DNA from: a virus
Length of the DNA: 64,000 nucleotides
IMG/VR virus record: IMGVR_UViG_3300027793_000078
Location: 1-64,000 of that record
Reading direction: 5' to 3' (one strand)
Position numbers and translations under genes: made by a program. Below, in pieces: positions 13,142-35,348 of this stretch. The stretch's first letter is position 1. Each line of letters opens with the position of its first letter. Under the pieces are notes generated by a model that was given only the letters and a program-made list of their open reading frames with translations, searched no databases and was not told where the DNA came from.

Positions 13142-14149
13142 ATGAAATATATAGATTATTACAAACATCTATTAATAGAAGATTTAAGAAGTGAAAGCGA
13201 TGAGTATTATTATCATATAACGCTTGCTCCATATCTTGAGACTATATTAGTTAAGGGACTACAAATCGGCAAAAAGGCTACTGTAAGTAATTACAGCGAA
13301 CATAGCCGTGGAAAAATCTTTTTGTGTGATATTGGTGTAGTTGACTGGTGGAAATATAATATTGAACAGCATGCGTTTCATCAATTTGATGATGAAAAAT
13401 TTCATGAAGTTGCCGTTGTTAAAATCAAGAAAGATAAACTGAAAAATGTATATGTAGATGAAATTGGTAGTGAAGACAGTAGAGGTAATTGTTATTATGT
13501 AACCAATGACATTCCTGCTAATTTTATTGAAATTCATGAAAAAGATGGGGCGGATAAAAATTTAACCGAATCGACATGGAGTGGATGGGGAAATATTACG
13601 AGTGTTGATAAAGAAGAATTTAAAGATATTTTGGTTAAGTACATGGAATATATAAATCGCGTATATAGTAAAGAATTGAGCAGTCAAAAAACATTACGTA
13701 TTAAAAAATTACTTGATGCAATAGATTCCACTGATTCAAAGGATGCATCTAAGATATTAGCTAGATTTGACATGGAAACAAGAATGAGCATAAGTGATTT
13801 CATTCCACTGAACAATAAAGGCGCAAACAAGGTATTTGACTTTCTTTATGAGAAATCAAAACAATATATTGAGCCTTTTCGGATTGTTGATTCTGATATT
13901 ACATTAAACAATGTCGCCAAATATAATAATAACAATATGGGAGATGTTAAAATATATGGTTTACAAGATCATAGACCGATTGTAGATTTTGGCAGCGGTA
14001 AATATACATTTGATGAAGAATTTATAAAAACTACAACAAATACCAATGAATTCTATCTGGATATTGGTCAAAACTGGAAAATAATCAATTTTAAAGACGT
14101 ATTACGCAAAATACATGCAGCAATAGATAATTATTATCGTACCCATTAA
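13142..14149 (+). CDS. Putative internal virion protein with N-terminal ADP-ribosyltransferase-like domain
   Basis: MKYIDYYKHLLIE leader; YYHITL...ILVKGL...IFLC...IPANFI ART/Tpt1-like pattern; TATTTAT upstream. Confidence 0.55.
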   Translation: MKYIDYYKHLLIEDLRSESDEYYYHITLAPYLETILVKGLQIGKKATVSNYSEHSRGKIFLCDIGVVDWWKYNIEQHAFHQFDDEKFHEVAVVKIKKDKLKNVYVDEIGSEDSRGNCYYVTNDIPANFIEIHEKDGADKNLTESTWSGWGNITSVDKEEFKDILVKYMEYINRVYSKELSSQKTLRIKKLLDAIDSTDSKDASKILARFDMETRMSISDFIPLNNKGANKVFDFLYEKSKQYIEPFRIVDSDITLNNVAKYNNNNMGDVKIYGLQDHRPIVDFGSGKYTFDEEFIKTTTNTNEFYLDIGQNWKIINFKDVLRKIHAAIDNYYRTH

Positions 14150-14154
14150 ATAAG

Positions 14155-16545
14155 ATGAAATATACCGATTATTATAATCACCTTGTAACCGAAGCATTTG
14201 GTGATGTGGAACGCGTAAAATGGAAACAACAAGTTCCTACATTGACTGATACTATCATAGACGATTATCTTGAAAAGTTTCAAGACATTCGTACTGCAAA
14301 ATATCGTTCGTCACAGGATGATATTGAAAACTTTAATATACCAAAAGGCAATGATAGATTCGACATTAGTAAATACAAGCAATGGAGTGATTTTGAAACA
14401 TTTATTGATTACGTAAGTGGTCAAGTTGATTTGGAAAAATCAAAAGGTCAAAAACTAAAAGACGTAGAGGTAACGGATTATAAACCGCTTGTTGATGAAA
14501 ACGGATTGCAAATTTATTATGCTGATACTCCCCGTGCTTGTATAGCATACAAAGGAAATGTACCTTATAGTTGGTGTGTAAGTCGAAGTACAACGAATCT
14601 TTATTACGCTTATCGTTATAGAAGTAATCAGCCGAGTTTTTATTTTGTTAAAGACATAGAGGCAACAAAAGAAGAATTATCAAAACCATTCACAGGCCGA
14701 TTTGACAATCCTTGGCACTTCTTTGTAATTCAAAAAACCAAAGATCAAACATATATTGTTAGTAGTGCCAATAATGATGGTGATGTGGAAATGACATGGA
14801 ATCAAATTTTGGAAATTCAACCAAAACTACATGGCATGGAGCATTATTTCAAACACGTACCATTAAAACGAAAAGAAGTATTAAAATATAAAGAATTAAA
14901 AGATTTAGGCGATCAAGGATTCGCAAAATTAAAATATTCAGACAAATCGCTGTATTTGGATATGTTTCCCGGCAATATTACAGATTTTAAATTTAAATAT
15001 TTGCCCGATGAATTAAAAAACAAATATATAGGATTTGGTATGGGATTGAGCGAAGATCAATACAATCAAATCAAAAATAATAAAAATTTATTAAAACGAT
15101 CTATTCAAATGATTGAACGTCGTATAGAATTATATTTTGATAATGATAGACTTCGCAATCTAAGTGACGGTGATTGGTGTGTATTTTTTGATACAGTTGA
15201 TGGGCAAAAAATATTGGAAAAATATATAGTAAAAGACACAGATTCACATAATAGATTCTTGTTGGAAATTCTACTAAGTAGATCAACTAAATTAAATAGA
15301 AACACAGACAAAATAATAGAAAATATCTTGTCTATAAAACCATATTTTCCAGCGTATGATATAAAGCAACTAATGCATTATTCATCTAATCCTGTGAATG
15401 TAGTAGAATTTATTGCACGCACAAACAAAGGAAAATTTGAATGGGCAACAGAAATGAATGATGTCATGTATCAGTTATTATTGACCAATTCAAAAAATTT
15501 CAGTGAGTTACTGGATGTGTTATTGAAATTGAATAAAAAAGAAAAAACTTCTAAAGATGCATCTTCAAAGTATAATTTACCTGAAAATTCTATTGTTTCA
15601 ATATTAAGAGCGTCTCCAGATTATAAACAAGCACTTGATATTTTTAAACAAAATGGATATTCTATTGATATAAGTGAAGATCAGGTGGATCGTTTAATAT
15701 ATGGACGCTCTAACACAATTTATAAGGATGGATCTGCGTTGATTCAACATTTAGGAGATAAGTTTACAGATAGAAGTATATATCATTTAGTATATTACAT
15801 TAAAAATGTACCCTCGACAACCGAACAAAAACAAAATTTAATTGAATTAATTATTTCAATCAAAACAAAGCTGAACGACGATTCGTTTCGTAGTTTAATT
15901 CATCTTTCACCATTCAAGGAAAAAACATTCTTGTTGATAACGTCAAACAATAAGTACGCTGGCGATGCTATTAAAGAATTACTGTTTTTAATTAGTCCTC
16001 GTCTATCTGAGCTAAATGAAAACGACAAATATACGATTGTTACTTTAATATGCAAATATGGCAAAGATACAATTACAGAAAGTCAAAAACGTATGTTAAT
16101 TGCGTCTTTATCAGATGTAGATACGGTCATCAAAGAAATGCAAAAATATGATATAACATTACCTGTATTAAGTGATCACACAATTCAATTTATATTAAGT
16201 GATTCAATTAGTCCCTTGAATTTTGCGTACTATTTGCAACGCAATAACATAACGTTTAACGTAAAGAAGACCGAAATACAACCATTAGTGATATATTCAA
16301 AAAATCCATTGGAATTTATAAGTGTTTTGCAAATGTTTAGTATTCCAATTATATTAAGCGACAGAGCAATGATTGGACTTTTAAATAAATACACAAATAA
16401 CCTCACATATGTTCGTTCATTGATTGCAAAACTTGTAGAAATATTTGGAAAACCGAGATTGTTAAATTTAAAAAAACTGAATGCTTCAATACGTAATATT
16501 GCTTGGGCGACTAATTGGTTTGGTCCAAAGGATTCAAAAATTTAA
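14155..16545 (+). CDS. Large putative internal virion protein (paralog of 16591)
   Basis: MKYTDYYNHLVTE leader; first ~330 aa highly similar to next gene (YSWC(V/I)SR, NPWHFFVIQKTKD). Confidence 0.7.
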   Translation: MKYTDYYNHLVTEAFGDVERVKWKQQVPTLTDTIIDDYLEKFQDIRTAKYRSSQDDIENFNIPKGNDRFDISKYKQWSDFETFIDYVSGQVDLEKSKGQKLKDVEVTDYKPLVDENGLQIYYADTPRACIAYKGNVPYSWCVSRSTTNLYYAYRYRSNQPSFYFVKDIEATKEELSKPFTGRFDNPWHFFVIQKTKDQTYIVSSANNDGDVEMTWNQILEIQPKLHGMEHYFKHVPLKRKEVLKYKELKDLGDQGFAKLKYSDKSLYLDMFPGNITDFKFKYLPDELKNKYIGFGMGLSEDQYNQIKNNKNLLKRSIQMIERRIELYFDNDRLRNLSDGDWCVFFDTVDGQKILEKYIVKDTDSHNRFLLEILLSRSTKLNRNTDKIIENILSIKPYFPAYDIKQLMHYSSNPVNVVEFIARTNKGKFEWATEMNDVMYQLLLTNSKNFSELLDVLLKLNKKEKTSKDASSKYNLPENSIVSILRASPDYKQALDIFKQNGYSIDISEDQVDRLIYGRSNTIYKDGSALIQHLGDKFTDRSIYHLVYYIKNVPSTTEQKQNLIELIISIKTKLNDDSFRSLIHLSPFKEKTFLLITSNNKYAGDAIKELLFLISPRLSELNENDKYTIVTLICKYGKDTITESQKRMLIASLSDVDTVIKEMQKYDITLPVLSDHTIQFILSDSISPLNFAYYLQRNNITFNVKKTEIQPLVIYSKNPLEFISVLQMFSIPIILSDRAMIGLLNKYTNNLTYVRSLIAKLVEIFGKPRLLNLKKLNASIRNIAWATNWFGPKDSKI

Positions 16546-16590
16546 AATGATTACATTTATGTCTACCAAATAAATATTTATAAACGAGAT

Positions 16591-19425
16591 ATGAATTACA
16601 CTGAATATTACAAGCATCTGATGAACGAGGCACTTGGTGATGTAGAAAGAATAAAGTGGAAACAACAGGTTCCAACTTTAACTAATAACATTATCAACAG
16701 CTATATTGAAAAATTTGATACAATACGTAAAACTCGTCCATCTGCCGCACAACATGATATAGACGACTTTAATATAGCAAAGGGTAATGATCGATATGAT
16801 ATTAGTAAATATAATAATTGGAAAGACTTTGAAGCATTTGTCGATTATGTAAATGGTCAAATTGATTTGGAAAAATCCAAAGGAAAGAAATTCACTGATA
16901 TTAAAGTTGATGGCAAGCCGCTTGTTGAGAAAAATGGGTTGGAAATATACTATGCGATGGATAAACATGCTTGTATTAGATACAAAGGCGATAAACCTTA
17001 TAGCTGGTGCATAAGTCGAAGTGACTCAAGCAACATGTATAACACATATCGTTATAAATATAATGAACCTAGTTTCTATTTTGTAAAAGATATTGAAGCA
17101 ACACAAAAAGAGTTTGAACATGGATTTGATGGAACATTTAAAAATCCGTGGCATTTCTTTGTAATCCAAAAAACTAAAGATGGAGATTATATTGTTACAA
17201 ATGCTGACAACAACGGAGACGCAACAATGTCATGGAATCACATTTTAAGAATTCAGCCAAAATTAAATGGAATGGAAGAATATTTTGTAAATGTGCCGTT
17301 GTCTGATATTGAAAAACAAAACTATGAACGGTTCATAGATGGATTGAGTGATCGAGAATTTGCAAAATTAAATTACAAAGAAAAAGAATCATATTTGGAT
17401 ATTGCTATTCCAAATAATGAATTAACGGATTTTAAATTTAAATCTCTGCCGGATGATTTAAAAAATAAATATATTGGATTTGGAATAAGAATTACACCGG
17501 GTCAATATGAAATAATCAAAAAAAATAAGTCTTTACTCAAAAGACTAACTGAAATATCTATTAGAAGATTCGAATTGTATAAACAAAATCAACTATATTT
17601 ATGGGATTTGAGTGATATTGACTTTAAAGCGATTGCAGCATCACCAAATGCTGCACGAATTTTACAATTTAAAACCGACGATGATTTTTTTAGATTTATA
17701 AAAATGTTTGGTGCTGACTTAGATGAAGTAATAAAGTTACTTGGACTTGATACATTAACCACCTTATTCAAACGATACCCACAAAAAGCATTTGAGTTAT
17801 ATGATGATCTCGAAATAACAAAACAAATTGTTCAAATATTGGGTGAACATATGAAATTTGTTTCTATTAAAGCTCCGGAGGGGTATTCATCTAGTAATTA
17901 TGGACCTACGTATCGTAATTTTTATACTGATAATGTAAATAATCTTATATCGGTAATCGACTTGATTTTAAAATATCGTGATAAATTGAGTATAACAGAG
18001 TGTGATTATATTTTAAGAAATCATATGTATGGCTTTGATACAGATGACGAAAACACCATCAGCAACAAAATTTTTGAACTGTATAAACAAGGTAAAATTG
18101 AACATGCCAATGAAGTTCCTCTTGGATTGAACAAAGAATATGTTGCCGATCTTTTAGCATGGATATTAATGACAAACAAAAATCCTGAAAAAATTTTTGA
18201 TTATGTAGATTTTTCAATTTGGCAACATTTAACACAGAATACATTAAAGATGTTGTTTAAAAGCCAAAATAAAATAATACACAAGAAACTTGCACCAATT
18301 TTTAAAGATTCTTTAAAAATAGGGCCACTTATGTACGATTTTATAATGACTGTGGTAAGAGGTGACAGAAATAAAATTCTTAATTTTGTACAAAAAATGG
18401 GAGGAGTTGAAAACATAAGAAATCGTATGCCAGAATATGGAATTTCAACTATTTTATACAACACACCAACAATAAATTTGCCACTAATCGCGTCATTGAT
18501 TCCAAAAAAACTTATTGAAAAATTAACTGGATACGATATTAGATCAATTATTAAAAGTTCACTTGGTGAACCTAATAAATTCAACGACAAAAGTTCAAAT
18601 GTCAGACTACCATTATTATTCAAAATTATAGGTGCGACGGCAATAACAAATGCAATGAAAGGATCTGAATTGTATTTTTTATTAAGCGAAGTTGTTAAAA
18701 GCTATTCACCATCTGTTGTTGACAAAAATTCTATTGATAATTTTTGCGAATTGATAATTAAAACAAAGGGAAATGAACTAGAAAGCGGTAAACTGTTAAA
18801 CGAGGTAGAAGCAATATTGACATTTTCAAATAATATTAAACGAATGTTTGATTTAATCGATAAAGAAAAAATTGATAATTTGAATAACGAAAGTGTTTAT
18901 AGTTTATTAAAACATAGTTTTTTTGAGAAAAATTTTAGCAAAAACATAGAACTTTTGGAATTATTGGGAGCAAATAATGTATCAAAAGCATTAGAAGTTT
19001 TCGACGCATCATACAATGCATATTATGATAATTCATATGATTTTTTTTCAAGTGCATCAAGAAAGCCGCCATTGTTTGAATATTTGATAAAACAGTTAGT
19101 TGCATCAGGTAGAAATATGAACAGTGCCATAATAGGTAATATAATTAGTTGTACCATGAGTGTTGATCTTGAAAAAATAGGAAATATATTGGGTGCGGAA
19201 AAAATTTCATTATTAAGTGATCATATAATTGGATATAACATGTCGAAACGATCAGATAAAGATTCATTAATTACTTTACTTATTAAATCTTTTGATAAGC
19301 AAAAATTAATAGATTTGATGATAACAAGTGTCGGAAAAAACTGGGAATCTCAAGTATCAAAACAAACATATCAAATGCTAACCGGCGTGACGGAACATTT
19401 ATTATACAAAAATTACTATTTATAA
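16591..19425 (+). CDS. Large putative internal virion protein (paralog of 14155)
   Basis: MNYTEYYKHLMNE leader; shared N-domain; divergent helical C-terminal region. Confidence 0.7.
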   Translation: MNYTEYYKHLMNEALGDVERIKWKQQVPTLTNNIINSYIEKFDTIRKTRPSAAQHDIDDFNIAKGNDRYDISKYNNWKDFEAFVDYVNGQIDLEKSKGKKFTDIKVDGKPLVEKNGLEIYYAMDKHACIRYKGDKPYSWCISRSDSSNMYNTYRYKYNEPSFYFVKDIEATQKEFEHGFDGTFKNPWHFFVIQKTKDGDYIVTNADNNGDATMSWNHILRIQPKLNGMEEYFVNVPLSDIEKQNYERFIDGLSDREFAKLNYKEKESYLDIAIPNNELTDFKFKSLPDDLKNKYIGFGIRITPGQYEIIKKNKSLLKRLTEISIRRFELYKQNQLYLWDLSDIDFKAIAASPNAARILQFKTDDDFFRFIKMFGADLDEVIKLLGLDTLTTLFKRYPQKAFELYDDLEITKQIVQILGEHMKFVSIKAPEGYSSSNYGPTYRNFYTDNVNNLISVIDLILKYRDKLSITECDYILRNHMYGFDTDDENTISNKIFELYKQGKIEHANEVPLGLNKEYVADLLAWILMTNKNPEKIFDYVDFSIWQHLTQNTLKMLFKSQNKIIHKKLAPIFKDSLKIGPLMYDFIMTVVRGDRNKILNFVQKMGGVENIRNRMPEYGISTILYNTPTINLPLIASLIPKKLIEKLTGYDIRSIIKSSLGEPNKFNDKSSNVRLPLLFKIIGATAITNAMKGSELYFLLSEVVKSYSPSVVDKNSIDNFCELIIKTKGNELESGKLLNEVEAILTFSNNIKRMFDLIDKEKIDNLNNESVYSLLKHSFFEKNFSKNIELLELLGANNVSKALEVFDASYNAYYDNSYDFFSSASRKPPLFEYLIKQLVASGRNMNSAIIGNIISCTMSVDLEKIGNILGAEKISLLSDHIIGYNMSKRSDKDSLITLLIKSFDKQKLIDLMITSVGKNWESQVSKQTYQMLTGVTEHLLYKNYYL

Positions 19426-19433
19426 GATAAAAA

Positions 19434-19991
19434 ATGAAATATACAGATTATTATAAACATTTATTATTTGAGTCTTTAGTTGATAAAAAAATTATAGATG
19501 TTCCTAAAGAACCGGGAACAGTTCCTATTCCGAGTAATCATCTTAGATTGTATCATTATACCGACGCAAGCAATGATGAACTTGAAAGAGATGGTTTATT
19601 GATTTCCAAAGCGAAAGGACATATGTATGGAGAGCCAGATTTTGTTTGGGCTTCATTGAAGCAACCCGGTAATTACAAAAAATATGTAGAATTTAGTGTA
19701 CCTATTGATGATCCTAGATTCAGCATGTGGGGTTCTAAACCAGATGCTTATAGAGGTGCTGAGTTTTATTCAGGTAAAAGCAATGATTTTACATTTCAAG
19801 GTGATATAAAACCAAATGAATTCATTGCAATACATGAACCGTGGCATCATCACTATAGATATATTGTAAATGAAAAGCCAAGCATAGTACAAAACGTATT
19901 AGATGGCGAGTATGATTATTTATTGCAAAAAAAATCAACTCCTGATGAAGCACAAGCGATCAATGCAATTAAAATAAACTATGGTAATTAA
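19434..19991 (+). CDS. Putative internal virion protein, ART-like fold
   Basis: MKYTDYYKHLLFE leader; LRLYHYT...DGL...VWAS...GDIKP pattern. Confidence 0.5.
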   Translation: MKYTDYYKHLLFESLVDKKIIDVPKEPGTVPIPSNHLRLYHYTDASNDELERDGLLISKAKGHMYGEPDFVWASLKQPGNYKKYVEFSVPIDDPRFSMWGSKPDAYRGAEFYSGKSNDFTFQGDIKPNEFIAIHEPWHHHYRYIVNEKPSIVQNVLDGEYDYLLQKKSTPDEAQAINAIKINYGN

Positions 19992-19994
19992 AAT

Positions 19995-20561
19995 ATGAAA
20001 TACACTGATTTTTATACAAATTTATTAAATGAAGATACTCCAGACATTGAATTAACTGGGAAAACGGTGACGGCAAATAATGTACCTTTAAAAAATTTAG
20101 ATTTAGCTGCCGTGGAAAAAAACATTGTTATGTTTAGAATGCCACATTCAAATTCATTTTTTGGAGAAGGTTACACGCTGATATATTTTATGGATAGTGA
20201 ACAATCAGCACAGGACATGATAAACAACAAGATACCATATTTAACGGTTCCTAGAGGAACATTTACCAGCGGCGGCAGCCCAATAACTGATATTTGGAAA
20301 AATCGTTTTCAGAAACCCGGAACAGAACACATTTTAGGCGTAATAGAAGGATGGACAAATAAAGATAAAATTTATATTGATATGATTACAGTCCGTCCCA
20401 AATATCGACGAAATACCATTGCTCAAAAAATGATAGCTATCATAAGAAAATCATTTCCAAATGCAAAAATAAGTTATTCACATGCCACTCCAGCAGGATC
20501 TAAGTTTTTTACGTCATATCAAAAAAACATTCCACCCGAACAATGGCAGGGAGAAAAATAA
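19995..20561 (+). CDS. Putative internal virion GNAT acetyltransferase
   Basis: MKYTDFYTNLLNE leader; IDMITVRPKYRRNTIA acetyl-CoA motif A; ATPAGSKFF. Confidence 0.65.
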   Translation: MKYTDFYTNLLNEDTPDIELTGKTVTANNVPLKNLDLAAVEKNIVMFRMPHSNSFFGEGYTLIYFMDSEQSAQDMINNKIPYLTVPRGTFTSGGSPITDIWKNRFQKPGTEHILGVIEGWTNKDKIYIDMITVRPKYRRNTIAQKMIAIIRKSFPNAKISYSHATPAGSKFFTSYQKNIPPEQWQGEK

Positions 20562-20753
20562 ATGCATAACTATACGCCTAGTGAAGAAAGATATATTGTT
20601 GCAGTTGGTCATCATAGATTATTATGGATTGGACAATATTTTGGAAAATGGATGGCTAATTAAACGATTATAATAACAATTAATGGTTATAATATTTCTA
20701 TTTATAATTAATTTAAAATAAGTTATATCATTTAAATGTAATATTTATATTGT

Positions 20754-21296
20754 ATGAAAAAAGAAACACTTGTCAGTTTGATAAAAGAATGCATTCAAGA
20801 AATTTTGAATGAAAATAATTTGGCCGCTAAAACTTTTTCCTATAATCGACATAATTTGTTAAAGGAATTAGAAGAATCCAGCAAATGTAAATGTGGAAGC
20901 GGATTAGACAGTGACTGGAAATTAGATAGTCGTGGTATTCCATTAGCAAAAGTATGTCCAGAATGTGAAGTTAATACACTAAAAGGATTTCGTAGAGATG
21001 TTCTATTGGACCCAAACTATAAAAAAAATAAATCAATTGACCAAGATATTGATGAATCAACGATGTCATACAGTCAACTCGTTCAACGTTTCGCGGCAGA
21101 ATCAAAAAAGAAATATAAAAACGCTGACATAAATAAAGTATATCTTTATTGCATCAAAAATCCAAATGCTACAATTCTTCATTTAGAAAAAGATCCTGTA
21201 CTTAATGATCCTACCGAATTTAATGACGATACAAGATACGCTATTTACTATGTATTTGGTAAATTAGGCCGAGAAAAAATGCACCACATCGTATGA
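20754..21296 (+). CDS. Putative internal virion protein with Zn-ribbon
   Basis: LIKECIQEILNE leader; CKCGSG...CPEC; TATTTAT 5 nt before ATG. Confidence 0.55.
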   Translation: MKKETLVSLIKECIQEILNENNLAAKTFSYNRHNLLKELEESSKCKCGSGLDSDWKLDSRGIPLAKVCPECEVNTLKGFRRDVLLDPNYKKNKSIDQDIDESTMSYSQLVQRFAAESKKKYKNADINKVYLYCIKNPNATILHLEKDPVLNDPTEFNDDTRYAIYYVFGKLGREKMHHIV

Positions 21297-22301
21297 TGTA
21301 AGAAATTAAATATATAGTAGTTGCAGAATATAATAAATTGACGTGATTATCATTTTGTGTTAGATTGTCGTAGTATGAACACAAAAAAAGACACTACAAT
21401 CAAAGCTACTACTGTAATACACGTTACATTACAAGATCAAAACTTCACACTTTCTCAAGCAGATGCATATCATCTTTATTATGCATTGGCGACTGCATTG
21501 GGAATATATCCGCATTATTATTCAGGTACTATAAATACACCATTTACTTCGCAGAATAATAGCGGTACTCCATTGCCACAACCCGCATTTATGACCAGTG
21601 AGGGAACACCTATTAATCTTGTCGCAAATATTACTGGACCTAAATAATATGTTTACAAATACAACTATAATTTTGTCTGGATTCACAAACAACATCACAT
21701 CACAAAATAATGAAATTTCCGTATTGAGAAACAATCAACCTGATATTTGGGTTGCAATACTAATTACTATTGGCCTATTGATATTGGTCAAATTTATGTT
21801 TAGTATTGAATACCGTAAATATCAGTCTAGAAAATATCTACGTATGAACGAAAATCTATTATCAGAAGAAAAATTGAAAATTATGTATTCAAACATTCGT
21901 GCAAAATACAACGACAGACAATTGGAATTTCCATTTGTAAAAGAAATTGATGATGCTTATGTAGCTGCCCGATATAATCTCAATGCACATGAGTAAAAGA
22001 GTATTTTTCTTTCATTACAACAAACCTGCAAGTCGCAGTGCCAATGCACCTAAAATGACTGTTCATTACAAAGGTGTATGTCACATTGTAGATCATATTA
22101 TTTGCAGCGTAAGCGTTCATACACATCATAATAAACGACAGCCGCATGTTGTTTTAAAAGGAAAAGCCAATAATATAGTGTTTATTGAAGATGTTCCATC
22201 CAAAGAAACGACAGCACTAATAACGTAAAAGTTGCGTTTATCATCTATTATGATTGAAATATTCCCGATTATATCCATTTTCGGGAATATTTATTTTAAA
22301 T

Positions 22302-23402
22302 ATGATAACATACAAACAACTTGCAGAAGCAATTCTTTTAGAAAATAATAATTTTCGAGGCGAGTATTGGATACAAGATGGATACGTTCAATTTGCTGAT
22401 GGTGATGTTGGTGATTTAAATCATGAAGCGATTGTTATACAAAGTGCCGCCAGTCAAGTTCTGTCGCACATAGGTATAGATGCAGATGAACCATATATAC
22501 CAGATATGGATGATGAAATTTATGAAGCCATACAAAATGATCTGCCTGAAGAAATACAAACACAATACGTAGACGGGGAAATATCAGCAAAAGATTGTTT
22601 AAAGTATTATGGCAAACATGTATTACAAAATGCAAAATTTGATGAATTGGTTGATGCTGCATATGATCGTATTGATGTAAGACGTTTTGCAATGCGTGAA
22701 TGGGGATGGAAAGCTATTCGTGGAAACAACGTAGACACATGGAATTTAACATCCGAAGATTTGAAAAAAATAAGTTCTGGATTAAGTGATGCTTATGACG
22801 CAGAAATTACTCAATATGAACAAAATAACAAATCAGTTGATGAAAATGGATTTGCCGGACCATATTTTAATATTGAAGTGTATAGTGTAGGTGACTATTA
22901 TAGTGATGTTCCATTTTCACTAATTGAAAGCAAAAATGTGGCATCGTTGCGTCCTTATAAAACGATTAACAGAGGAGAACGTATTACAGAATCAAATGGA
23001 CTCGTCGGACGAGTTGAATTGCCAAGCAAAAAAAATAAAATAGACGATTCATTACGACAGGAATTAAATGATTTGAGTAAAAAGTACGAAGAAAATTTGG
23101 ATTCAAGAGCATACGGATATGTAGATCACATTAAATTAGACGCATTAGTGGCTAAAAAAACAGCGCCTGTTGGAACTGGGTCTGCATACATGAATGAGTT
23201 ATGTCGTATCGCAGACAAATATCAACGAATCATCGTATTGTATACAGCTACAAGAGGATATGGCGGCGGAAATGGTTTTAAAAAAACAACCAGCACTGAT
23301 CGAATAAAAAGATTTTATCAACGATTTGGATTTGTCAGTAATTATAGTAACCCCGATTATAACCCGGATTTAGGTGGTAATATGCACCGCAATCCAAAAT
23401 AA
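22302..23402 (+). CDS. Putative internal virion protein with C-terminal GNAT domain
   Basis: MITYKQLAEAILLE leader; PVGTGSAYMNELCRIAD...RFYQRFGF. Confidence 0.6.
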   Translation: MITYKQLAEAILLENNNFRGEYWIQDGYVQFADGDVGDLNHEAIVIQSAASQVLSHIGIDADEPYIPDMDDEIYEAIQNDLPEEIQTQYVDGEISAKDCLKYYGKHVLQNAKFDELVDAAYDRIDVRRFAMREWGWKAIRGNNVDTWNLTSEDLKKISSGLSDAYDAEITQYEQNNKSVDENGFAGPYFNIEVYSVGDYYSDVPFSLIESKNVASLRPYKTINRGERITESNGLVGRVELPSKKNKIDDSLRQELNDLSKKYEENLDSRAYGYVDHIKLDALVAKKTAPVGTGSAYMNELCRIADKYQRIIVLYTATRGYGGGNGFKKTTSTDRIKRFYQRFGFVSNYSNPDYNPDLGGNMHRNPK

Positions 23403-23474
23403 AACAATTTAAAAAATTATTATATGTTGTTTATAACTGATGATTTGATATACTTATGAGTATATAACTACGTT

Positions 23475-25703: not shown

Positions 25704-25715
25704 TATTTATAGGAT

Positions 25716-26456
25716 ATGAATTTATACCGAGAATTTTACGAATCATTGAAAGAAGCTGCGTCTGAACCATTTCTTTTGGGTTATATTGGAAGAAAAGCAT
25801 TTAATAATGGCAAAATAGAAGTAAAGATTGTTACAGATGATGATGCAAGACATCCTCAAGAATGGAGCGAAAGTGGACTTACATGGAGATTTGTACCAGA
25901 AGTTAATATGTTAACATTTTGGGAAAAGCCATCAAGAGAAGAATTATTAGCCGTAAAAAACTGGTTGGAAAAAAACAAGTATGATGTAAAAAGAACTCAT
26001 ATTTATGGTCAATCGTACAATATCAAGCGATATGCTCCTGATACGCCTGAAATGAAAAGAAAACCGCTTGGAGTTGATGAAAATACAAATAAAAAGTATT
26101 GTGCGGTTTTGTTGGATGAAGTATCACAAAAGAAACTTAAAAGTTTATTTGGCGATTTGATTCCTCAAAATTGGACATTAAAATGTCATCATATGACTAT
26201 TGATCCGTTCAATGAATGTGCTGATAATGTTGGAAAATCTGTGAATTTGATGTTGACACACTTTGGTAAAAGTGATAAAGCATGTGCTGTAAAAGTTGTT
26301 GGATACAAAGGAACCACGAATAATGCATTTCCTCATGTAACCATTGCCGTGAATGAAGCTGACGGCGGCAAAGCAAAAGATAGTAATACAATTACAGAAT
26401 GGACACCTATTCGTAAACATATTACACTTACGGGAACAATAGAAAACTTGGAATGA
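25716..26456 (+). CDS. Two-domain protein with C-terminal 2H phosphoesterase (tRNA ligase CPDase-like)
   Basis: HHMTI and PHVTIAV 2H motifs; FYESLKE leader; TATTTAT promoter. Confidence 0.7.
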   Translation: MNLYREFYESLKEAASEPFLLGYIGRKAFNNGKIEVKIVTDDDARHPQEWSESGLTWRFVPEVNMLTFWEKPSREELLAVKNWLEKNKYDVKRTHIYGQSYNIKRYAPDTPEMKRKPLGVDENTNKKYCAVLLDEVSQKKLKSLFGDLIPQNWTLKCHHMTIDPFNECADNVGKSVNLMLTHFGKSDKACAVKVVGYKGTTNNAFPHVTIAVNEADGGKAKDSNTITEWTPIRKHITLTGTIENLE

Positions 26457-26460
26457 ATTT

Positions 26461-27891
26461 ATGATTAGTTTAAAAGAGTTATTGATGGAAGGAGCAAAAG
26501 AAAATGCTGCATTGGATTATTTGCAGCATTTGGTACGTAATGGGCCATTCAAAGGAAGAGTTTACCTTGCAGGCGGTGCTGTGCGTGATATGCAACTTGG
26601 TAAAGATCCAAAAGATTTGGATGTTGTTGTTACAGGCGGCATTGATGCTGGTATGGAATTTGCCAAATGGGCAACTCAATACATGAATAATTTCAAGGAA
26701 GGCAGCAATCCTGTGCTGTTTCCTACATATGGTACTGCTAAATTTACATTGAGTGGTATCGTTCATAATGGTATTGATTTGAGTGATGTCGATATTGAAG
26801 CAGTTGCAACCAGAAAAGAAAAATATAGTAGTGGCAGTCGCAAGCCAGAAGTAAGTTCTGGTGATCTTGCCGATGATGTTAATCGTAGAGATTTTACTGT
26901 TAATAGTCTGTTGAAAGACTTGACTAATGGTGAAATTTTGGATTTGACTGGATTGGGTAAACAAGATATTGCCGCTGGTATTATTCGCACTCCATTGAAT
27001 CCTGATATTATTTTCAGTGAAGATCCTCTTCGTATGTTGAGAGCGGTTCGATTTGCTTTCAAATATGATTGGGATTTGCCATTATTTATGATTCGGGCAT
27101 TGAAGCGCAATTCATCACAATTAAAAAATATTAGCAATGAACGTATTCGTGATGAACTGGATAAAATGCTTGTAACCGGTAGTCCAGATAGAGCAATTAA
27201 ATTGCTACGCATTACAGGATTGTTAAACTATATCATTCCAGAATTTAAAAGTGCATACAAGATGACACAAAATGTTCATCATAAGCATGATGTATTTACA
27301 CATACGTTGGAAGTTCTGAAGAAAACTAAACCTGTGTTGGCTCAACGTTTAATGGCATTGTTTCACGATATTGGCAAAACTGTTACTCGTAGTGTAACTC
27401 CTACAGGTGTTCATTTTTATGGACACGAAGACAGTGGTGCTGATATGGCAAAAGACATTATGAAGCGACTGAAATATCCAAATGAATTGGCTGACGCCGT
27501 TGCTTTGGGTGTTCAAAATCACATGCGCTTAAAGAGCGGCGGCGATGATGCAGTTAAACTGAGCGATAAAGCGTTGCGTAAATTTAAAGTTACTCTTGGC
27601 GATCAATTGGAAAATTTGCTTGATGTAATGCATGCAGATAATATTGCACATAGCGAAGCAAGCAGCATGCCAAATCAAATTGAAAATGTTAGAAAGCGTT
27701 TGGCAGCATTGCAAATGCCGACTGAAAAACCAAATTTACCTATCAATGGCAACGATTTGATTGCTTTGGGCTTGAAACCGGGTCCACAATTTGCGAAGAT
27801 TATGAGTGCAGTGACTGATGCTTGGTATGAAAACCCAAATATAAATCGTCAACAGGCACTTGAAATTGCTCGAAAAATTGTAAATTTATGA
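26461..27891 (+). CDS. cca: CCA-adding tRNA nucleotidyltransferase with HD domain
   Basis: GGAVRD, DLDVV, RRDFTVN, EDPLRMLRAVRF, SNERIRDE, HDIGK motifs. Confidence 0.92.
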   Translation: MISLKELLMEGAKENAALDYLQHLVRNGPFKGRVYLAGGAVRDMQLGKDPKDLDVVVTGGIDAGMEFAKWATQYMNNFKEGSNPVLFPTYGTAKFTLSGIVHNGIDLSDVDIEAVATRKEKYSSGSRKPEVSSGDLADDVNRRDFTVNSLLKDLTNGEILDLTGLGKQDIAAGIIRTPLNPDIIFSEDPLRMLRAVRFAFKYDWDLPLFMIRALKRNSSQLKNISNERIRDELDKMLVTGSPDRAIKLLRITGLLNYIIPEFKSAYKMTQNVHHKHDVFTHTLEVLKKTKPVLAQRLMALFHDIGKTVTRSVTPTGVHFYGHEDSGADMAKDIMKRLKYPNELADAVALGVQNHMRLKSGGDDAVKLSDKALRKFKVTLGDQLENLLDVMHADNIAHSEASSMPNQIENVRKRLAALQMPTEKPNLPINGNDLIALGLKPGPQFAKIMSAVTDAWYENPNINRQQALEIARKIVNL

Positions 27892-28118: not shown

Positions 28119-28127
28119 ATTAACCAA

Positions 28128-28163
28128 ACCCCGTAACTTTTATGAGTTACGGGGTCTTTTTTT
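28128..28163 (+). terminator. Intrinsic terminator
   Basis: ACCCCGTAACT/AGTTACGGGGT hairpin + T run. Confidence 0.85.
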
Positions 28164-28175
28164 ATATTTATAACT

Positions 28176-29609
28176 ATGCAATATAGCGATTTCTACAATT
28201 ATTTGATAAACGAAGCGTTTGATAGTGTTTATTCTTTTTTATTGAATCCAGAACATGATGATACTGAATGGTATGATTTGATTCGTAAATTTGAATCACA
28301 TGGTGGCAAAGTTCTTGGACAAGGAAAATATGCAACTGTAATGGAGCATCCTTCTTGGAAATACGTATTGAAAGTATTTAATGACGATGCGCCGTATATT
28401 AAATTTGTAAGATTTGCTTTGAAGAATCCACGTTCTTCATTTCCTGTATTTTATGACAAGCCTCGTAAAATTGTACCTCATTTCAAAAGATCCGAATCAC
28501 ATCCTTATTTGTATGTAGTTAAAACAGAAAAACTATATCCAATTAATAGAGACATATTTGGAGAAATTGAATATTATTTGTATTACAACTATGAATTTGT
28601 TGATGATATGATTGCAAAATATAGTCGTGATAATGAAAAAGACAACATGTGGATTGAAATGAAGCACAAGTTGGAAACATTAGAATCCAAATATCCTTCA
28701 TTACCACAATTTAAAGAAGATTATAATTTTTTACTAACCAATGCTAATTTCGGTCAACTTGATATGCATGTGCATAATATAATGCGTAGATCAAATGGAG
28801 AATTTGTTTTAATTGATCCATTTTGGCAAGGAGAATCAATTCATCAAATTCAAAAACGAGCATTTGATGCAGAAACAGATTATCCATATGACGAATATAT
28901 TGCTTCTCCTATGTTAAAAGGTGGAGAATTACCAAAGAGAAAGCAGGTTCGTAAAATTAATTACAAACCAAAAGAACCAGACTATAAGGCATCATATGGC
29001 GATGATTTTCCATTTTTTGAACAAAAAGTTAATAAAAAAGAATACGAACGTAGATATGAATTCATTCAAAAATATATTGAGTCTTTAATTGAAAAAGCTC
29101 CCGGCAAAAATCGTGAAGAAAAATTAACTTATGTCTGGAATCATCACAAATCAACAATGGAAAAACTCATAGCAGGATCACGCGCTTTGAGTAAACCATC
29201 CATTTTTGGTCGGATTGGTGATGAACATCCAGATTCTTATAAATCAAAATTTACAGCAGATAAGTATTATATTCGTTTTGGTGATTTGCCAAAAGGCGGC
29301 AAATCGAAAAACTATGCCACCAACGAAATGGAAATAGGAATTAGTTCTTATCCTGTTAAATGGAATATAGAAAAAAATAAATGGGAAATAATTGAAGATC
29401 AATTGGAAGAATTTTCAGCACTTCATAGTTTGATATATGATATAACTATAGGAGAAGGACGACCTGTTTATTTGATTCAAGGTCAAGAATTGAATGATTT
29501 GGGTAGTGACGGAGAACCTATGTTGGATGTTAACAAAATTAAAATTATTAAACAATTACAGCCAGATGAATTCTTTAGTAAAGAATTAGGAAACAATTGG
29601 TATAGATAA
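28176..29609 (+). CDS. Putative internal virion protein with N-terminal Ser/Thr protein kinase domain
   Basis: LGQGKYATV glycine loop, VLKV, LDMHVHNIM catalytic loop, LIDP; MQYSDFYNYLINE leader. Confidence 0.75.
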   Translation: MQYSDFYNYLINEAFDSVYSFLLNPEHDDTEWYDLIRKFESHGGKVLGQGKYATVMEHPSWKYVLKVFNDDAPYIKFVRFALKNPRSSFPVFYDKPRKIVPHFKRSESHPYLYVVKTEKLYPINRDIFGEIEYYLYYNYEFVDDMIAKYSRDNEKDNMWIEMKHKLETLESKYPSLPQFKEDYNFLLTNANFGQLDMHVHNIMRRSNGEFVLIDPFWQGESIHQIQKRAFDAETDYPYDEYIASPMLKGGELPKRKQVRKINYKPKEPDYKASYGDDFPFFEQKVNKKEYERRYEFIQKYIESLIEKAPGKNREEKLTYVWNHHKSTMEKLIAGSRALSKPSIFGRIGDEHPDSYKSKFTADKYYIRFGDLPKGGKSKNYATNEMEIGISSYPVKWNIEKNKWEIIEDQLEEFSALHSLIYDITIGEGRPVYLIQGQELNDLGSDGEPMLDVNKIKIIKQLQPDEFFSKELGNNWYR

Positions 29610-29624
29610 TAATATATATAAAAT

Positions 29625-30547
29625 ATGCATTTATCTAGATACGCAAAATTATTGGTTGAAAGTAACTTAACCCACGATTCGTTTGGTCGTAAAATCAAAG
29701 CGGCAATTGAGACTATTTTTGATGTTGACGATGTAAACATACAAAAAACAAATTTTTCAAAAGGTCCAAAATTTGCAAATTCGCATTTTAGTGCTGTTTT
29801 AATTTTTAAGTATCGTAATATTCCTTTAGAAATGACAGTTCATTTTTATCACTTGAAATTTTCGAAAAGCGAATTGAAACATTTAACAACCAATCAATTT
29901 ATGGATATGGTTCAATCTTCTGAATCTATACCCAAAATTGAAACGCCGGAAGATATATTGCGTTCTCCAAATATTCAAGTTATGTTAAGTGCTGTTTTAA
30001 CGTATAAACCAGTTACATACACCAAAGACATTATCGGTATAGATGACATGGAAGATGTTAAAGACATTCATATCGGAATCGTTAATTCAAATAATATAAG
30101 AAATTTAATGATCAAAGCAAAACAATTGATAGATAAATTGGGCGGAGATGATAATGCTCCTGATGAACCTGAACCGGTAGCGCCAATTCCTACAAATAAA
30201 AAATTAGTACCTGTATGAAAAATAAAATATCGTTAAAATCAATCTTAAAAGAAGCAATGATTATATTGCCTTTTGATGTTAGAAGCAGTGGTGTTGGTGA
30301 TTTTTATATTCAAATGGATGGTAACAATGCTGGCAAACCGTTTAAAGTAAAACCAGAAAAGGGCAATTATTATGCTGTAATTACAGATAAAAATATATTA
30401 TTGCCAGAATATTTTTATTATGTAGTTGAGTATTTATATACATCCGGTGCATTCAAACAAGTTATTCATGGTACAACAGTGCCACACTTGAATATCAAAG
30501 GATTTACTGAGGTTGTAGCTAAGTTTTTCTTTAAGACACCAAAGTAA
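29625..30547 (+). CDS. Two further leader-bearing late proteins (29625-30218, 30215-30547)
   Basis: MHLSRYAKLLVE and ISLKSILKE N-termini. Confidence 0.55.
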
Positions 30548-30553
30548 GATAAA

Positions 30554-31186: not shown

Positions 31187-31234
31187 CTATTATAAAAACC
31201 TTGACTTTTTCATTTTTCTAGGTATTGTTGCCAT

Positions 31235-32275: not shown

Positions 32276-32279
32276 TAAC

Positions 32280-32310
32280 AAAACCCCGTCAAAAACGACG
32301 GGGTTTTTTT
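32280..32310 (+). terminator. Intrinsic terminator
   Basis: AAAACCCCGTC/GACGGGGTTTT hairpin + T run. Confidence 0.85.
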
Positions 32311-32343
32311 CTAATTTTACTGAGAGACAGTATATTTATTGAT

Positions 32344-33717
32344 ATGCCTATACCAACAGACCACTTGATACTAGAAGGTAGAATATCAGATTTTAAGAAA
32401 AAGTATGCCTACAAATTGGCACCTGCGACTGTTAATTATATTATTGCCAATGATCCTAGTAAAAATCAGAAATATTTAGATTGGATAGGTAAATCTCTTG
32501 TGGCAGCAGATGAAGATGACGATTATATATCTCCAGAAGAAATGATGAAAGACATTGCATTGTTTCACAAAAATATCAAAGGCGTTGATATATACTCTCT
32601 CAAATCATTTGATCAATTGCAATCATTGGTACACAAACAAACAGAACCTTCATCAAGACAAAAAATACTTCAAGGCGCAGATATAATTGTAAATGATAAA
32701 AATTGGTTGGTTGTGGCTCCTAAAACACATGATGCAAGTATGTTTTTTGGTGGAAGCACTCGTTGGTGTATTAGTACAAGTTCAGAATCTCACTGGGATA
32801 AACATTACAATGAGGATGGTGAAGCCATCATCATGCTTAAAAATAGAAAGAAAACATCAAGTAGCTTAGATTGGAAACTTTGTTTAACTGTTCAACCGGG
32901 AGAAAGTGATTTGGATTATGCGTATATGTATGATGTTAAAGATTATGGAACAAGTGTTCGCAACAGCAGTTTTTATTCTTATGTCCCAGAATATGTGGTA
33001 GATAAAATAAATGATTATTTGTATAACAATCATGATGGTGCAGATCGTAGAGACACTTATACTCAAGAAAAAGAAGAAAAAGAAATAGAAGAATATATGC
33101 AACGTGAAGTAGTTGATGATATTCTAGCGAAATATATTCGACTAATAAGAGTAAAATATCCCAAATATGCAGAAAAATTCAGTCGGGGTGATTTATTAGA
33201 ATTTATTGATGAATTTGTTGGCGAAGAAATAGTAAAACAAATGTGCCGGCACATAGCTTCTTCGGCTATTGGTGAATATGGGTGGCAAGATATGCATATA
33301 AGAAGTTTGCAAGAGTTTGATAATTTTTTATACAGAGATTCACCAAGTAACGCCAATTTTTTCAATTATGCATTGGTAAGTTACGTTAATAAAGTTCTAG
33401 GAGTAGATATGTTATTAAATATAATTGAAAACAATATCGGCACATCAAACTTTAACCGGCTTGACTCGGATTATGAAATAACAAACGCTTTAAATGATTG
33501 TGTTGAAAAATATGCGCTTGCGATAAATCAAGCAAACCAATTGCAATTACCAAACTTTCCACAAACAAAAGAAAAGTTTAAAAAATATGATATTGACGCC
33601 ATTATTGAATTGCTAATAAAATATGGATATGATCAATTAGCAAATATAATAAAGTCATATAGCGTGAGAAAATTGCAAGAAATGCAATACAAACAATTCA
33701 TTGTTTTCATGGTTTAA
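32344..33717 (+). CDS. Putative internal virion protein, distant relative of 14155/16591
   Basis: LILE leader; DI..(L/Y)KSF, WLVVAPKTHDAS...TRWCIS motif parallels YSWC(V/I)SR. Confidence 0.55.
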   Translation: MPIPTDHLILEGRISDFKKKYAYKLAPATVNYIIANDPSKNQKYLDWIGKSLVAADEDDDYISPEEMMKDIALFHKNIKGVDIYSLKSFDQLQSLVHKQTEPSSRQKILQGADIIVNDKNWLVVAPKTHDASMFFGGSTRWCISTSSESHWDKHYNEDGEAIIMLKNRKKTSSSLDWKLCLTVQPGESDLDYAYMYDVKDYGTSVRNSSFYSYVPEYVVDKINDYLYNNHDGADRRDTYTQEKEEKEIEEYMQREVVDDILAKYIRLIRVKYPKYAEKFSRGDLLEFIDEFVGEEIVKQMCRHIASSAIGEYGWQDMHIRSLQEFDNFLYRDSPSNANFFNYALVSYVNKVLGVDMLLNIIENNIGTSNFNRLDSDYEITNALNDCVEKYALAINQANQLQLPNFPQTKEKFKKYDIDAIIELLIKYGYDQLANIIKSYSVRKLQEMQYKQFIVFMV

Positions 33718-34598
33718 AAAACTATTTATACAAGTGACAAAGAACCAATTAAAGCAACTTATTGTTGAAGCTGTTATTGAAACACAACAACAGCAAATTG
33801 ATAATTTTTTAAGTGAATTTGCAAACTTCAACCTCAAAGAAGAAAAGAAACGTCTCAAAATATTAACTCGACGTTTACAGGAATTGCATCGACATGCAAA
33901 TACTGAATTGTTTAATAAATCTGATAAATATACAAGAGCGTTTTGGAAATTAAAAGAAGAAATTAAACAATTAAATGAAAAACTCAAACGCTACGAATCA
34001 GAAAAAGACTTAATTGATATATTTGCAAGAACACACAAACAATACGTTTTTAAAAAACATGGAAAAATTATATGATATTTGAAACCGACAAATTTGAATT
34101 TGAAATGGGCAGAATGGGATCATTGCATGCCACAAATGGATTTATTATAAAATACAAATGTGGCAAGGAAACATGTGAGATAAAATATGGAACCAGAACC
34201 AAGTTATCTACAATTAACGTGGGCAATGAACAAGCTGAAAAAGTTATTATTGATTTGATAAAAACAAATGTTAAAGATAAAGATGCAAGAATTGAAAGCG
34301 TTGCCCGTGGCAAACAGAAAAATTCTACATATTTATCGATAATGGAAACATTAATATAAAGGAATAAAATTATGATAGTCGCAGGTGGAATCGTAACACA
34401 AAAACCAATAGGTATTGTTAGTAACAATCCTAATTTTGCACAACAACAAGCACAAGCAGCGCAACGTGAAGCAGCAAAACAAGCTCAAGTTGACGCACTG
34501 GCAGCTAAATTAGCAGCGCAACATCAAGCACAACAAGCTCAAGCAGCAGACCACCAAAAAAAATGGACTGTAAAGTTCTAATATAATATTTATTATAG

Positions 34599-35348
34599 AT
34601 GCAATCTAATAATTACAACATTGACGCGGAACTTGAACAGATTCTTCTTACAGAAGGATGGTTTGGTAATGTTCCTAGACTTGCATCTGTTGGTGGTTTG
34701 GCAGCAGCATTGGCATTTAATCCTACACAAGCAAAACCTGTAAATGTTTCTACTGTAAAACACTCTGTTGCTGCCGATCTCCAATCTACAAAACCAAAAA
34801 GTACGCCGACTGTTACACCGTCAACAAGCAAAGAAGTTAAACCTTCAAATATATCAACCAGCTCAATGTTTGATTATATTAGCCAGTGGGAAGGCTTAAA
34901 AACAAAGGTATATAAAGATCATGTCGGAAATCCTACAATTGGAATAGGTCATTATTTGGATGGCAGTGAAACTGACAGAAATATTATTAAGACGATTTTT
35001 GGTGGATCTGTTGATTATGATTCTTTGCTGAAAGGATCACAAACATTGACCAAAGATCAAGTTGAAAAACTATTCAACGTTGATGTAAAGATAAAAGAAA
35101 AACTAGCATCCAAGCTGATTCCAGACTACAATAGCTTTGATAAAAATACTAAGAATGCAATTGTTAACGCATTGTATCGTGGTGATTTAGGACAAAAAAC
35201 TATCAAGTTAATAAATGCCAAGGATTGGAAAAAGGCAGCAGCAGAGTATTTGAATCACTCTAATGCAAAGTCAGGTCCAGACCAAGTAAAACGTAGAATG
35301 AAAACCAATGCTGCATTGTTATACAAAAACGCTTCAAAGTCTCTTTAA
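34599..35348 (+). CDS. Phage lysozyme-like (GH24) muramidase with N-terminal extension
   Basis: EG.K.KVYKD..G.PTIGIGH catalytic motif; ILLTE leader. Confidence 0.8.
   Translation: MQSNNYNIDAELEQILLTEGWFGNVPRLASVGGLAAALAFNPTQAKPVNVSTVKHSVAADLQSTKPKSTPTVTPSTSKEVKPSNISTSSMFDYISQWEGLKTKVYKDHVGNPTIGIGHYLDGSETDRNIIKTIFGGSVDYDSLLKGSQTLTKDQVEKLFNVDVKIKEKLASKLIPDYNSFDKNTKNAIVNALYRGDLGQKTIKLINAKDWKKAAAEYLNHSNAKSGPDQVKRRMKTNAALLYKNASKSL

Follow-up and report, generated by a model that had tools for sequence, protein, structure and literature searches.

Predicted capsid-targeting and cleavage leaders of the T4 kind on about a dozen diverse proteins of an uncultured giant phage

The stretch of DNA analyzed here (the window) comprises the first 64 kb (positions 1 to 64,000) of the linear virus record IMGVR_UViG_3300027793_000078, a contig of 78,477 bp (78.5 kb) that stems from freshwater samples and is referred to as G000. 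The plus strand holds nearly all long open reading frames (ORFs) from 13 to 37 kb of the window. A sequence-only reading of this region had described about 15 proteins that share a short N-terminal leader ending in hydrophobic-x-Glu, which it likened to the capsid-targeting sequence (CTS) of phage T4. All leader strings that it quoted are present where it had placed them, and 12 of the 15 genes carry leaders of 10 to 20 aa, ending in [LIVM]-x-E, that have support past chance. The 15 genes are listed here, with the protein behind the leader termed cargo; the strict motif and the leader classes A to D are defined below.

g13142, 13142..14149 (+): class A leader MKYIDYYKHLLIE (13142-13180) and a 322-aa cargo, possibly ADP-ribosyltransferase-like; strict motif at the ORF start
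g14155, 14155..16545 (+): class A leader MKYTDYYNHLVTE (14155-14193) and a 783-aa cargo; strict motif
g16591, 16591..19425 (+): class A leader MNYTEYYKHLMNE (16591-16629) and a 931-aa cargo; strict motif
g19434, 19434..19991 (+): class A leader MKYTDYYKHLLFE (19434-19472) and a cargo with a predicted ADP-ribosyltransferase (ART) fold; strict motif
g19995, 19995..20561 (+): class A leader MKYTDFYTNLLNE (19995-20033) and a GNAT acetyltransferase; strict motif
g20754, 20754..21296 (+): class D leader MKKETLVSLIKECIQEILNE (20754-20813) and a 160-aa cargo; moderate support
g22302, 22302..23402 (+): leader MITYKQLAEAILLE (22302-22343) and a 352-aa cargo; moderate support
g25716, 25716..26456 (+): leader MNLYREFYESLKE (25716-25754) and a 233-aa cargo; matrix score 13.1
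g26461, 26461..27891 (+): class C leader MISLKELLME (26461-26490) and a CCA-adding or poly(A) polymerase-type nucleotidyltransferase with an HD domain, by Pfam
g28176, 28176..29609 (+): class A leader MQYSDFYNYLINE (28176-28214) and a protein-kinase-like cargo; strict motif
g29625, 29625..30218 (+): class B leader MHLSRYAKLLVE (29625-29660) and a 185-aa cargo; by clustering
g30215, 30215..30547 (+): class C-like leader MKNKISLKSILKE (30215-30253) and a DUF6943 protein; by Pfam and matrix
g32344, 32344..33717 (+): doubtful leader MPIPTDHLILE on a 446-aa protein; generic hydrophobic-x-E ending only
g33734, 33734..34075 (+): possible leader VTKNQLKQLIVE(AVIE) from a GTG start, and a coiled-coil-like 100-aa protein; weak to moderate support
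g34599, 34599..35348 (+): doubtful leader ..ELEQILLTE on a phage lysozyme, by Pfam

The completeness of G000 is estimated by CheckV at ~22%. A 319-kb contig on record encodes proteins identical to g16591 and g19434, and G000 is for this reason regarded as a fragment of a giant phage. The closest relative, G001, is a 108.8-kb IMG/VR contig that is collinear with G000 at 81% nucleotide identity across 39.6 kb and carries more than 12 leader genes. Three further contigs (G002, G003, and the 123.7-kb G004) overlap G001 at 88% identity, G004 doing so at the right end of G001. G006 is a complete relative of 368.8 kb with terminal repeats, and the complete 595-kb phage LR756511.1 encodes a homolog of g14155. 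A megablast search of 13 to 36 kb of the window against 50,697 phage records gave no match, nor did a tblastn search of these cultured phages with g19434. IMG/VR searches with an exact degenerate DNA pattern for MKYTDYYKHL and with the kinase-like protein g28176 were likewise without a match, and a scan of metagenome contigs with g16591 found matches on contigs of 3 to 5 kb only.

The strict motif, M[KNQ]Y[ITS][DE][YF]Y[KNT][HNY]L[LVMI].E, is found at six places when the complete contig is translated in all six frames, each of them the start of an ORF (13142, 14155, 16591, 19434, 19995, and 28176). The tagged proteins had been described as unrelated past the leader. All-versus-all BLASTP of the 26 proteins of the region bears this out beyond the first 13 to 19 residues for every pair but one: g14155 and g16591 are paralogs past residue ~19 (57% identity, 370 aa), while the remaining pairs of strict-motif proteins have the leader alone in common. 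The six 39-nt leaders contain 52 synonymous codon differences among them, and Leu10 is encoded by five different codons (CTA, CTT, CTG, TTA, and TTG). Nucleotide identity is 0.71 in the leader, compared with 0.35 upstream and 0.38 downstream; conservation of the leader is at the level of the peptide and not of the DNA.

The hydrophobic-x-E ending is enriched in the region, with [LIVMF]-x-E found in residues 4 to 25 of 18 of the 27 plus-strand ORFs at 13 to 36.9 kb (odds ratio, 6.1; p = 6e-5), but taken alone it is a weak criterion, as 30 of the 121 other ORFs of the contig also have it (25% background). A position matrix was therefore drawn from the last ten leader residues of g14155 homologs in other phages, with close relatives excluded, and was scored against 17,548 internal windows from the contig's own proteins. 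N-termini with a p value of 5e-4 or less belong to g26461, g19434, g28176, g25716, g14155, g13142, g19995, and g30215. The leader of g26461 has the top score (18.0), and the score of g25716 exceeds that of every internal window.

Clustering of the first 22 residues of 413 ORF products from G000, G001, and G004 (ungapped, with pairs homologous past residue 30 excluded) yielded 95 pairs of at least 22 bits, compared with 9 and 8 for two internal segments. The threshold of 22 bits was chosen because single linkage at 18 bits merged into one large cluster. Four classes of leader were distinguished.

Class A, MKYTDYY.HL..E: 13 true members, by clustering
Class B, M[IH]QLS.YAKLL.E: 4 members, by clustering
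Class C, MI.LK.L[IL].E: 12 members, by clustering
Class D, ..L[IV].EC[IV].E..: found by eye at the head of g20754 and of the unrelated G004_64286, G006_74309, and G006_70691

Independent support for six of the looser leaders (20754, 22302, 25716, 26461, 29625, and 30215) comes from the matrix built on other phages, from recurrence of their leader class on unrelated proteins encoded by relatives, or from both sources.

The junction between leader and cargo was followed in two cargo families. For g14155, 251 homologs were found in a large protein collection and leaders were read in the best 120, of which 118 have a lineage-specific leader of 6 to 17 aa that ends in [LIVMF]-x-E directly before the conserved AFGDD../DFKSQ.. 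start (examples are MKLSHIFKDLLNE, MNNNDNIDLKE, MIKLQDLIRE, MPILLKELLFVE, and MRRIFE). Glu13 of g14155 is invariant across a 30-sequence alignment. The LR756511.1 homolog has the junction ..INE|DFKTQ and lies 3 kb downstream of a T4-type portal-protease-scaffold-capsid block. Among 42 homologs of g19434, 40 begin with a leader whose end is [LIM]-x-E, in most cases 9 or 12 aa before the EPGT core, and two main dialects are present, MKYTDYY.. and MIKLKSLL.E. The P3 residue of the predicted site is L, I, M, V, or F throughout both families, and leaders are kept across homologs at 30 to 60% identity. Cleavage at such sites would leave P1' residues that open mature N-termini such as AFGDVER.., SLVDKK.., and AFDSVYSF... 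The AlphaFold models of both g14155 and g19434 show the leader as a separate low-confidence helix ahead of a well-predicted domain. A leader body specific to each phage, joined to a fixed position and fixed last three residues, is what a protease site combined with a docking peptide would be expected to look like. The T4-type reading of the leaders is favored by this pattern, in which the junction is fixed in 118/120 and 40/42 homologs and the rest of the leader varies by lineage.

The tagged genes are the variable part of the comparison between G000 and G001. No homolog of g13142, g19434, g19995, or g20754 was found in G001, and about 10 tagged G001 genes have no counterpart in G000, including a NUDIX hydrolase and a weak PARP-like protein. 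Orthologs that are shared between the two phages may bear another leader class or none, and the same leader stands on unrelated genes, in agreement with the earlier description of a portable tag. The kinase-like ortholog in G001 is 74% identical and begins with the class B leader MIQLSDYAKLLNKSNIQE|AFDN in place of MQYSDFYNYLINE|AFDS, with the AFD junction kept. The G001 ortholog of g25716 begins with MTQYAQYYKHLLE, a class A leader, and that of g16591 (79% identical) begins with MKYTDYYNHLVTE. Homologs of g13142 and g19434 in G006 carry MIKLK..L.E leaders, that of g13142 (54% identity, 124 aa) being MIKLKNLLIE. The CCA-adding enzyme, headed by MISLKELLME in G000, is leaderless in G001, where MISLKELIE heads an unrelated 212-aa gene at the corresponding position. 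A gain and loss of cargo genes that is quick, and partly due to recombination at the leader, is part of what we regard as the best explanation.

At the CCA region itself (window 26087-26490 versus G001 19204-22533, L002/L003), G001 has the 212-aa leader gene, a minus-strand gene, and the leaderless CCA enzyme, and the G000 enzyme seems to have gained MISLKELLME by deletion or by recombination.

A head module of the T4 type, with an S77 protease, is present in the lineage. G002, G003, and G004 encode, in T4 order, a T4-type large terminase, a Gp20-type portal (Portal_T4, 5e-66), a Peptidase_S77 protein (about 1e-27 to 3e-26), a presumed scaffold, and a Gp23-type capsid protein (Gp23, 1e-72). 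The G004 protease, in which the GEL.HP and SSRG.GS motifs are preserved, shares 30% identity with T4 gp21 (3e-20). Small class C-tagged genes lie between the portal, protease, and scaffold genes of G004 and directly after its capsid gene, with the leaders MSISLKRLIE, MITLKKIIE, ..KISLKSLLLE, MIKLKDLIDE, MIKLKDLILE, and MILLKTLLLE. In G006, an S77 protease is present together with eight MIKLK-type genes, and the same pattern anchored at internal positions was not found in this genome; its head module also holds small leader-tagged genes (class C/D). The nearest cultured phages by capsid protein are Microcystis phage Mel-JY01 (51% identity, full length) and Flavobacterium phage immuto (about 60% identity over three quarters of the length). 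Both have the same head-module order as the G002-G004 lineage, and no array of tagged genes was seen within the 19.5 kb of immuto that were inspected.

A 97-aa ORF in G001 (75368-76373; L005:15368-16373), also present in G002 (5734-5895), has a match to the Gp23 capsid family (1e-9) that is confined to the first ~50 positions of that family, and it overlaps the beginning of a gene that strongly matches Acb3, an inhibitor of the cyclic oligonucleotide-based antiphage signaling system (CBASS; 2e-38). Since a preprint reportedly links phage proteases to CBASS activation (PMC12991175), a mini-gene resembling a capsid propeptide beside an anti-CBASS gene may be of interest.

The motif TATTTATW occurs 47 times in the window, compared with 24.5 ± 4.9 expected, and 18 of its 27 plus-strand sites lie within 13 to 37 kb. 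Ten tagged genes have it just ahead of the start codon, nine of them at 3 to 10 nt from the ATG and g33734 at 3 nt from its GTG. The form TATTTATT lies 10, 6, and 3 nt upstream of g13142, g22302, and g32344, and TATTTATA lies 4 nt upstream of g20754 and g25716 and 3 nt before the GTG of g33734; the g33734 arrangement is repeated in G001. TATTTATW precedes structural genes of G004 in the same way. These placements would fit a shared, putatively late promoter.

On the plus strand of window 13124-36800 (e.g., 16575, 19417, 20742, 25704, 28165, 33723, and 34587), no Shine-Dalgarno sequence lies between TATTTATW and the start codon. If TATTTATW were a −10-like late promoter, transcripts with little or no untranslated leader would be expected. 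The missing Shine-Dalgarno sites and the related Flavobacterium phage suggest, as no more than a guess, hosts among the Bacteroidota.

The cargo proteins fall into several kinds. A ~350-aa conserved domain followed by an alpha-solenoid forms the cargo of both g14155 and g16591, which are paralogous over the first 370 aa of g16591. PDB sequence searches with these two proteins gave no match, and Foldseek found only generic helical-repeat matches for the predicted g14155 model, where the leader is a detached helix with a predicted local distance difference test (pLDDT) score of <50. The AlphaFold2 model of g19434 has a pLDDT of 90, with the leader as a separate helix at residues 3 to 13 (about 61). 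VIA-align against the whole PDB placed ART-fold enzymes in the top eight positions and in most of the top 20 (Z, 4.0 to 6.2), and Foldseek gave weak ART matches, so that the evidence for an ART fold in this model is modest but consistent. For g13142, an Atlas lead to DarT/PARP/Arr clusters (score, 0.88) is a lead only. Matches were found to Pfam Acetyltransf_13 for g19995 (24.3 bits; cut-off, 22.8; further GNAT matches are weaker), to PolyA_pol (3e-21) and HD (3e-9) for g26461, and to PHROG 15752 (T7 gp0.7-type kinase; 4e-8) for g28176, in which the glycine loop GQGKYATV is present.

The assignment of the looser leaders draws on both the clustering and the relatives. The class D-type leaders of G006_74309 and G006_70691 head genes that flank the G006 protease. 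The leader of g22302, MITYKQLAEAILLE, is conserved in G001, joined the class C cluster at 18 bits, and resembles in pattern the T4 CTS MKTYQEFIAE (PMC8442874). The g29625 leader clusters with three G001 genes beginning MIQLS[KD]YAKLL..E, two of which are not homologs. The g30215 leader (DUF6943 match, 1.4e-9; matrix p = 5e-4) clusters with that of G004_39990 (..KISLKSLLLE), a neighbor of the capsid gene. The start of g33734 (matrix p = 3e-3 per window) resembles that of G004_83416. Neither the matrix nor the clustering gave a class match for the g32344 leader. In g34599 (Phage_lysozyme, 3e-11; leader matrix p = 5e-3), the site precedes LASVGGLAAALAF, a hydrophobic segment rich in Gly and Ala that is similar to those of signal-anchor (SAR) endolysins.

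Several neighbors of these genes were also recorded. The DUF6943 gene of G001 (25862-26983; L003:5862-6983) has no start codon of its own, and LSLKSILKE|AMII lies inside a 373-aa ORF, where it could be an internal cleavage site or the mark of a broken gene. Window 24987-25703 (+), in the middle of the array, encodes a 238-aa protein with a classical signal peptide, MNLNKIFLAFLIFISTAVA, in place of a leader. Window 35352-35855 (+), directly after the lysozyme, encodes a phosphoesterase of the 2H/LigT family (PF13563, 6e-10) that bears no leader tag and matches the anti-CBASS protein Acb1 below threshold.

The leaders exist, are portable, are selected as peptides, and end at a conserved hydrophobic-x-E junction. 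We consider it probable that they are T4-style capsid-targeting and cleavage leaders borne by about a dozen enzymes, with several coexisting classes and a fast turnover of cargo. Each leader would be a short N-terminal amphipathic helix of 10 to 20 residues with an aromatic or aliphatic front and an [LIVMF]-x-Glu end. Late in infection, the tagged proteins would bind the scaffolding core of the assembling prohead, and the gp21-type serine protease (Peptidase_S77) would cut after the Glu. The leader would then exit the head, and the mature enzyme would remain inside and enter the host with the DNA. The lineage would use at least three or four such dialects in parallel, and the cargo would include the ART-fold protein, the GNAT protein, the kinase-like protein, the CCA-adding enzyme, the two large solenoid proteins, and further proteins. 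By analogy with T4, we infer the packaging, cleavage, retention in the head, core binding, and injection of these proteins. A complex predicted for the presumed G004 scaffold with residues 1 to 45 of a class C-tagged protein had a score of 0.01, which offers no support and gives no verdict. When the T4 head genes were scored by the huge-phage matrix, the gp24 site MAKINELLRE|S was picked (p = 1e-3), and the starts of T4 gp21, gp22, and gp67 show LIE, IAE, and LIE.

Several observations weigh against this interpretation. No capsid, portal, terminase, protease, or scaffold gene was found on the 78.5-kb contig, which is ~22% complete, so the link to an S77 protease runs through relatives; the prohead protease proposed by the sequence-only reading has its Peptidase_S77 matches in the overlapping relatives and in G006. 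Class A leaders cannot be aligned to the T4 CTS, which scores only 3.9 on the matrix (p = 3e-3 per window). Three of the 15 leaders are doubtful, those of 32344 and 34599 being at background level and that of 33734 borderline. Finally, the G001 ortholog of the CCA-adding enzyme does without a leader, and some tagged proteins may therefore not be packaged cargo.

The protease may also remove these propeptides for another purpose. In this case, toxic enzymes (ART, kinase, and GNAT) would be kept inactive in the producing cell, or auxiliary core proteins would be marked that are degraded and expelled, and the next host would receive hardly any mature cargo or none. The T4 core proteins gp22, gp67, and gp68 offer a precedent, as they start with hydrophobic-x-E sites and are mostly degraded (PMC9026906), and small tagged genes do sit inside the G004 and G006 head modules. 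The cargo proteins, in contrast, are large folded enzymes with a single conserved junction and no obvious pattern of internal sites, like the retained Alt and internal proteins of T4, and a zymogen role leaves the common leader on unrelated enzymes unexplained. We think this explanation improbable. That the leaders direct proteins to another destination (a membrane, another phage assembly, or a partner chaperone), with the terminal Glu as a binding motif and not a cut site, seems to us quite improbable. The leaders are predicted amphipathic helices, as such a role would have it, and cleavage at the Glu is itself a prediction, but the sole invariant feature across the dialects is the junction [LIVMF]-x-E, which is the T4 protease rule. 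Moreover, in the two cases available for comparison, complete IMG/VR records without an S77 match (L052, 52 kb; L055, 456 kb), ART domains distantly related to g19434 lie inside proteins of >1000 aa that have no such leader. This arrangement suggests that fusion into polyvalent proteins may serve as an alternative delivery route.

A by-product of recent duplication or recombination, or of selection on translation starts, with no function for the peptide, is very improbable. The genes do lie in arrays, and the upstream TATTTATW with the start region might serve as a cassette for recombination, but the peptide is kept despite the 52 synonymous differences, the flanking DNA is only 35 to 38% identical, and leaders persist across homologs at 30 to 60% identity and on different folds. 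A tag recognized by a modifying enzyme (a radical-SAM maturase of the kind acting on ribosomally synthesized and post-translationally modified peptides) is extremely improbable and was rejected, as the contigs with the tagged arrays (G000, G001, and G004) gave no match to Radical_SAM (PF04055), and the lone match, a G002 gene, lies far from tagged genes.

If the tagged proteins are packaged as we favor, a set of enzymes (ART, acetyltransferase, kinase, CCA-adding enzyme, and others) would be injected before any phage gene is expressed, a protein-level first strike much broader than that of T4 with Alt and IPI. The rapid turnover of tagged genes between phages of 81% identity suggests that they are likely determinants of host range or counter-defence. 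The leader would also allow such cargo to be recognized by a simple sequence rule in the genomes of uncultured phages, and T4-type capsids could be loaded with foreign proteins by means of these new short tags. A bolder and rather unlikely extension is that classes A, B, C, and D are orthogonal zip codes, used at once to sort sets of cargo by copy number, position, or order of ejection, with the leader as a recombination handle for the exchange of effectors between phages and the head as a fast-evolving device that could be programmed to deliver 12 or more enzymes; the delivered enzymes would then include tRNA-repair and host-modifying activities.

Other features were noted outside the array. 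Window 3916-4215 (-) and contig 64268-64735 (+), just past the window, encode small proteins with N-termini like those of type IV pilins or pseudopilins (..FTIIELLVVLAII.. and ..FTLVELLLTVII..). Window 53618-57832 (+) holds a tellurite-resistance-like block, in which TelA was identified by Pfam and the TerD-like and vWA-like neighbors by eye only. The contig end (78441-78477) holds the start of an ATPase-like gene with the motif GRHGTGKT, recognized by eye, and its G001 counterpart (L005:9552-11861) carries an intein (Intein_splicing, 2e-16).

Among known systems, the closest is that of T4, in which the capsid-targeting sequence of the internal proteins was reportedly described by Mullaney and Black in 1996. 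An Asp at position 10 of that sequence prevents processing in T4 and leaves targeting intact. The T4 CTS, MKTYQEFIAE, has 10 residues, of which 4 and 7 direct targeting and 8 and 10 processing (PMC8442874, PMC9026906). T4 propeptides range from 7 to 65 residues, and the packaged Alt is an ADP-ribosyltransferase (PMC9026906, PMC8442874, PMC5694885). The CTS of IPI-III and the propeptides of Alt and gp24 are all removed by the prohead protease gp21 (PMC9026906, PMC8442874). The leaders described here are similarly short N-terminal propeptides, as predicted, which end in hydrophobic-x-Glu, have aromatic or hydrophobic candidate targeting residues upstream, and can be borne by unrelated proteins; the head module of the lineage is of the T4 type and includes an S77 protease, and the ART-fold cargo resembles Alt. 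They differ in that class A leaders are 13 aa long and not alignable to the CTS, and at least three to four classes of leader are present side by side. Some 12 tagged genes are found within 23 kb, in contrast to the three internal proteins and Alt of T4, and the predicted cargo enzymes reach 944 aa, where the internal proteins of T4 are small and basic. T4 already provides the principle, and according to the proposal of one review T4-like phages load varied proteins by means of the CTS (PMC9026906).

The giant phages phiKZ, 201phi2-1, and SPN3US also carry numerous proteins inside the head, have paralogs with identical N-termini, and use a protease related to gp21 with a cut site behind Glu (PMC5694885, PMC7411985). 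Their proteases recognize (A/S/G)-x-E, and their propeptides are mostly longer than 100 residues, in contrast to the Leu, Ile, Val, Met, or Phe at P3 and the 10 to 20 residues found here. Propeptides of the phiKZ/SPN3US type were considered and set aside, as A, S, or G does not occur at P3 in either cargo family. Polyvalent multi-domain proteins, the subject of Iyer et al. in 2017, are reportedly delivered along with phage or plasmid DNA. They would bring the same kinds of effector domains (ART and others) into the cell at the start of infection. Their domains are fused in one giant protein, whereas in the phage lineage described here the domains are encoded by separate genes, each with its own leader.

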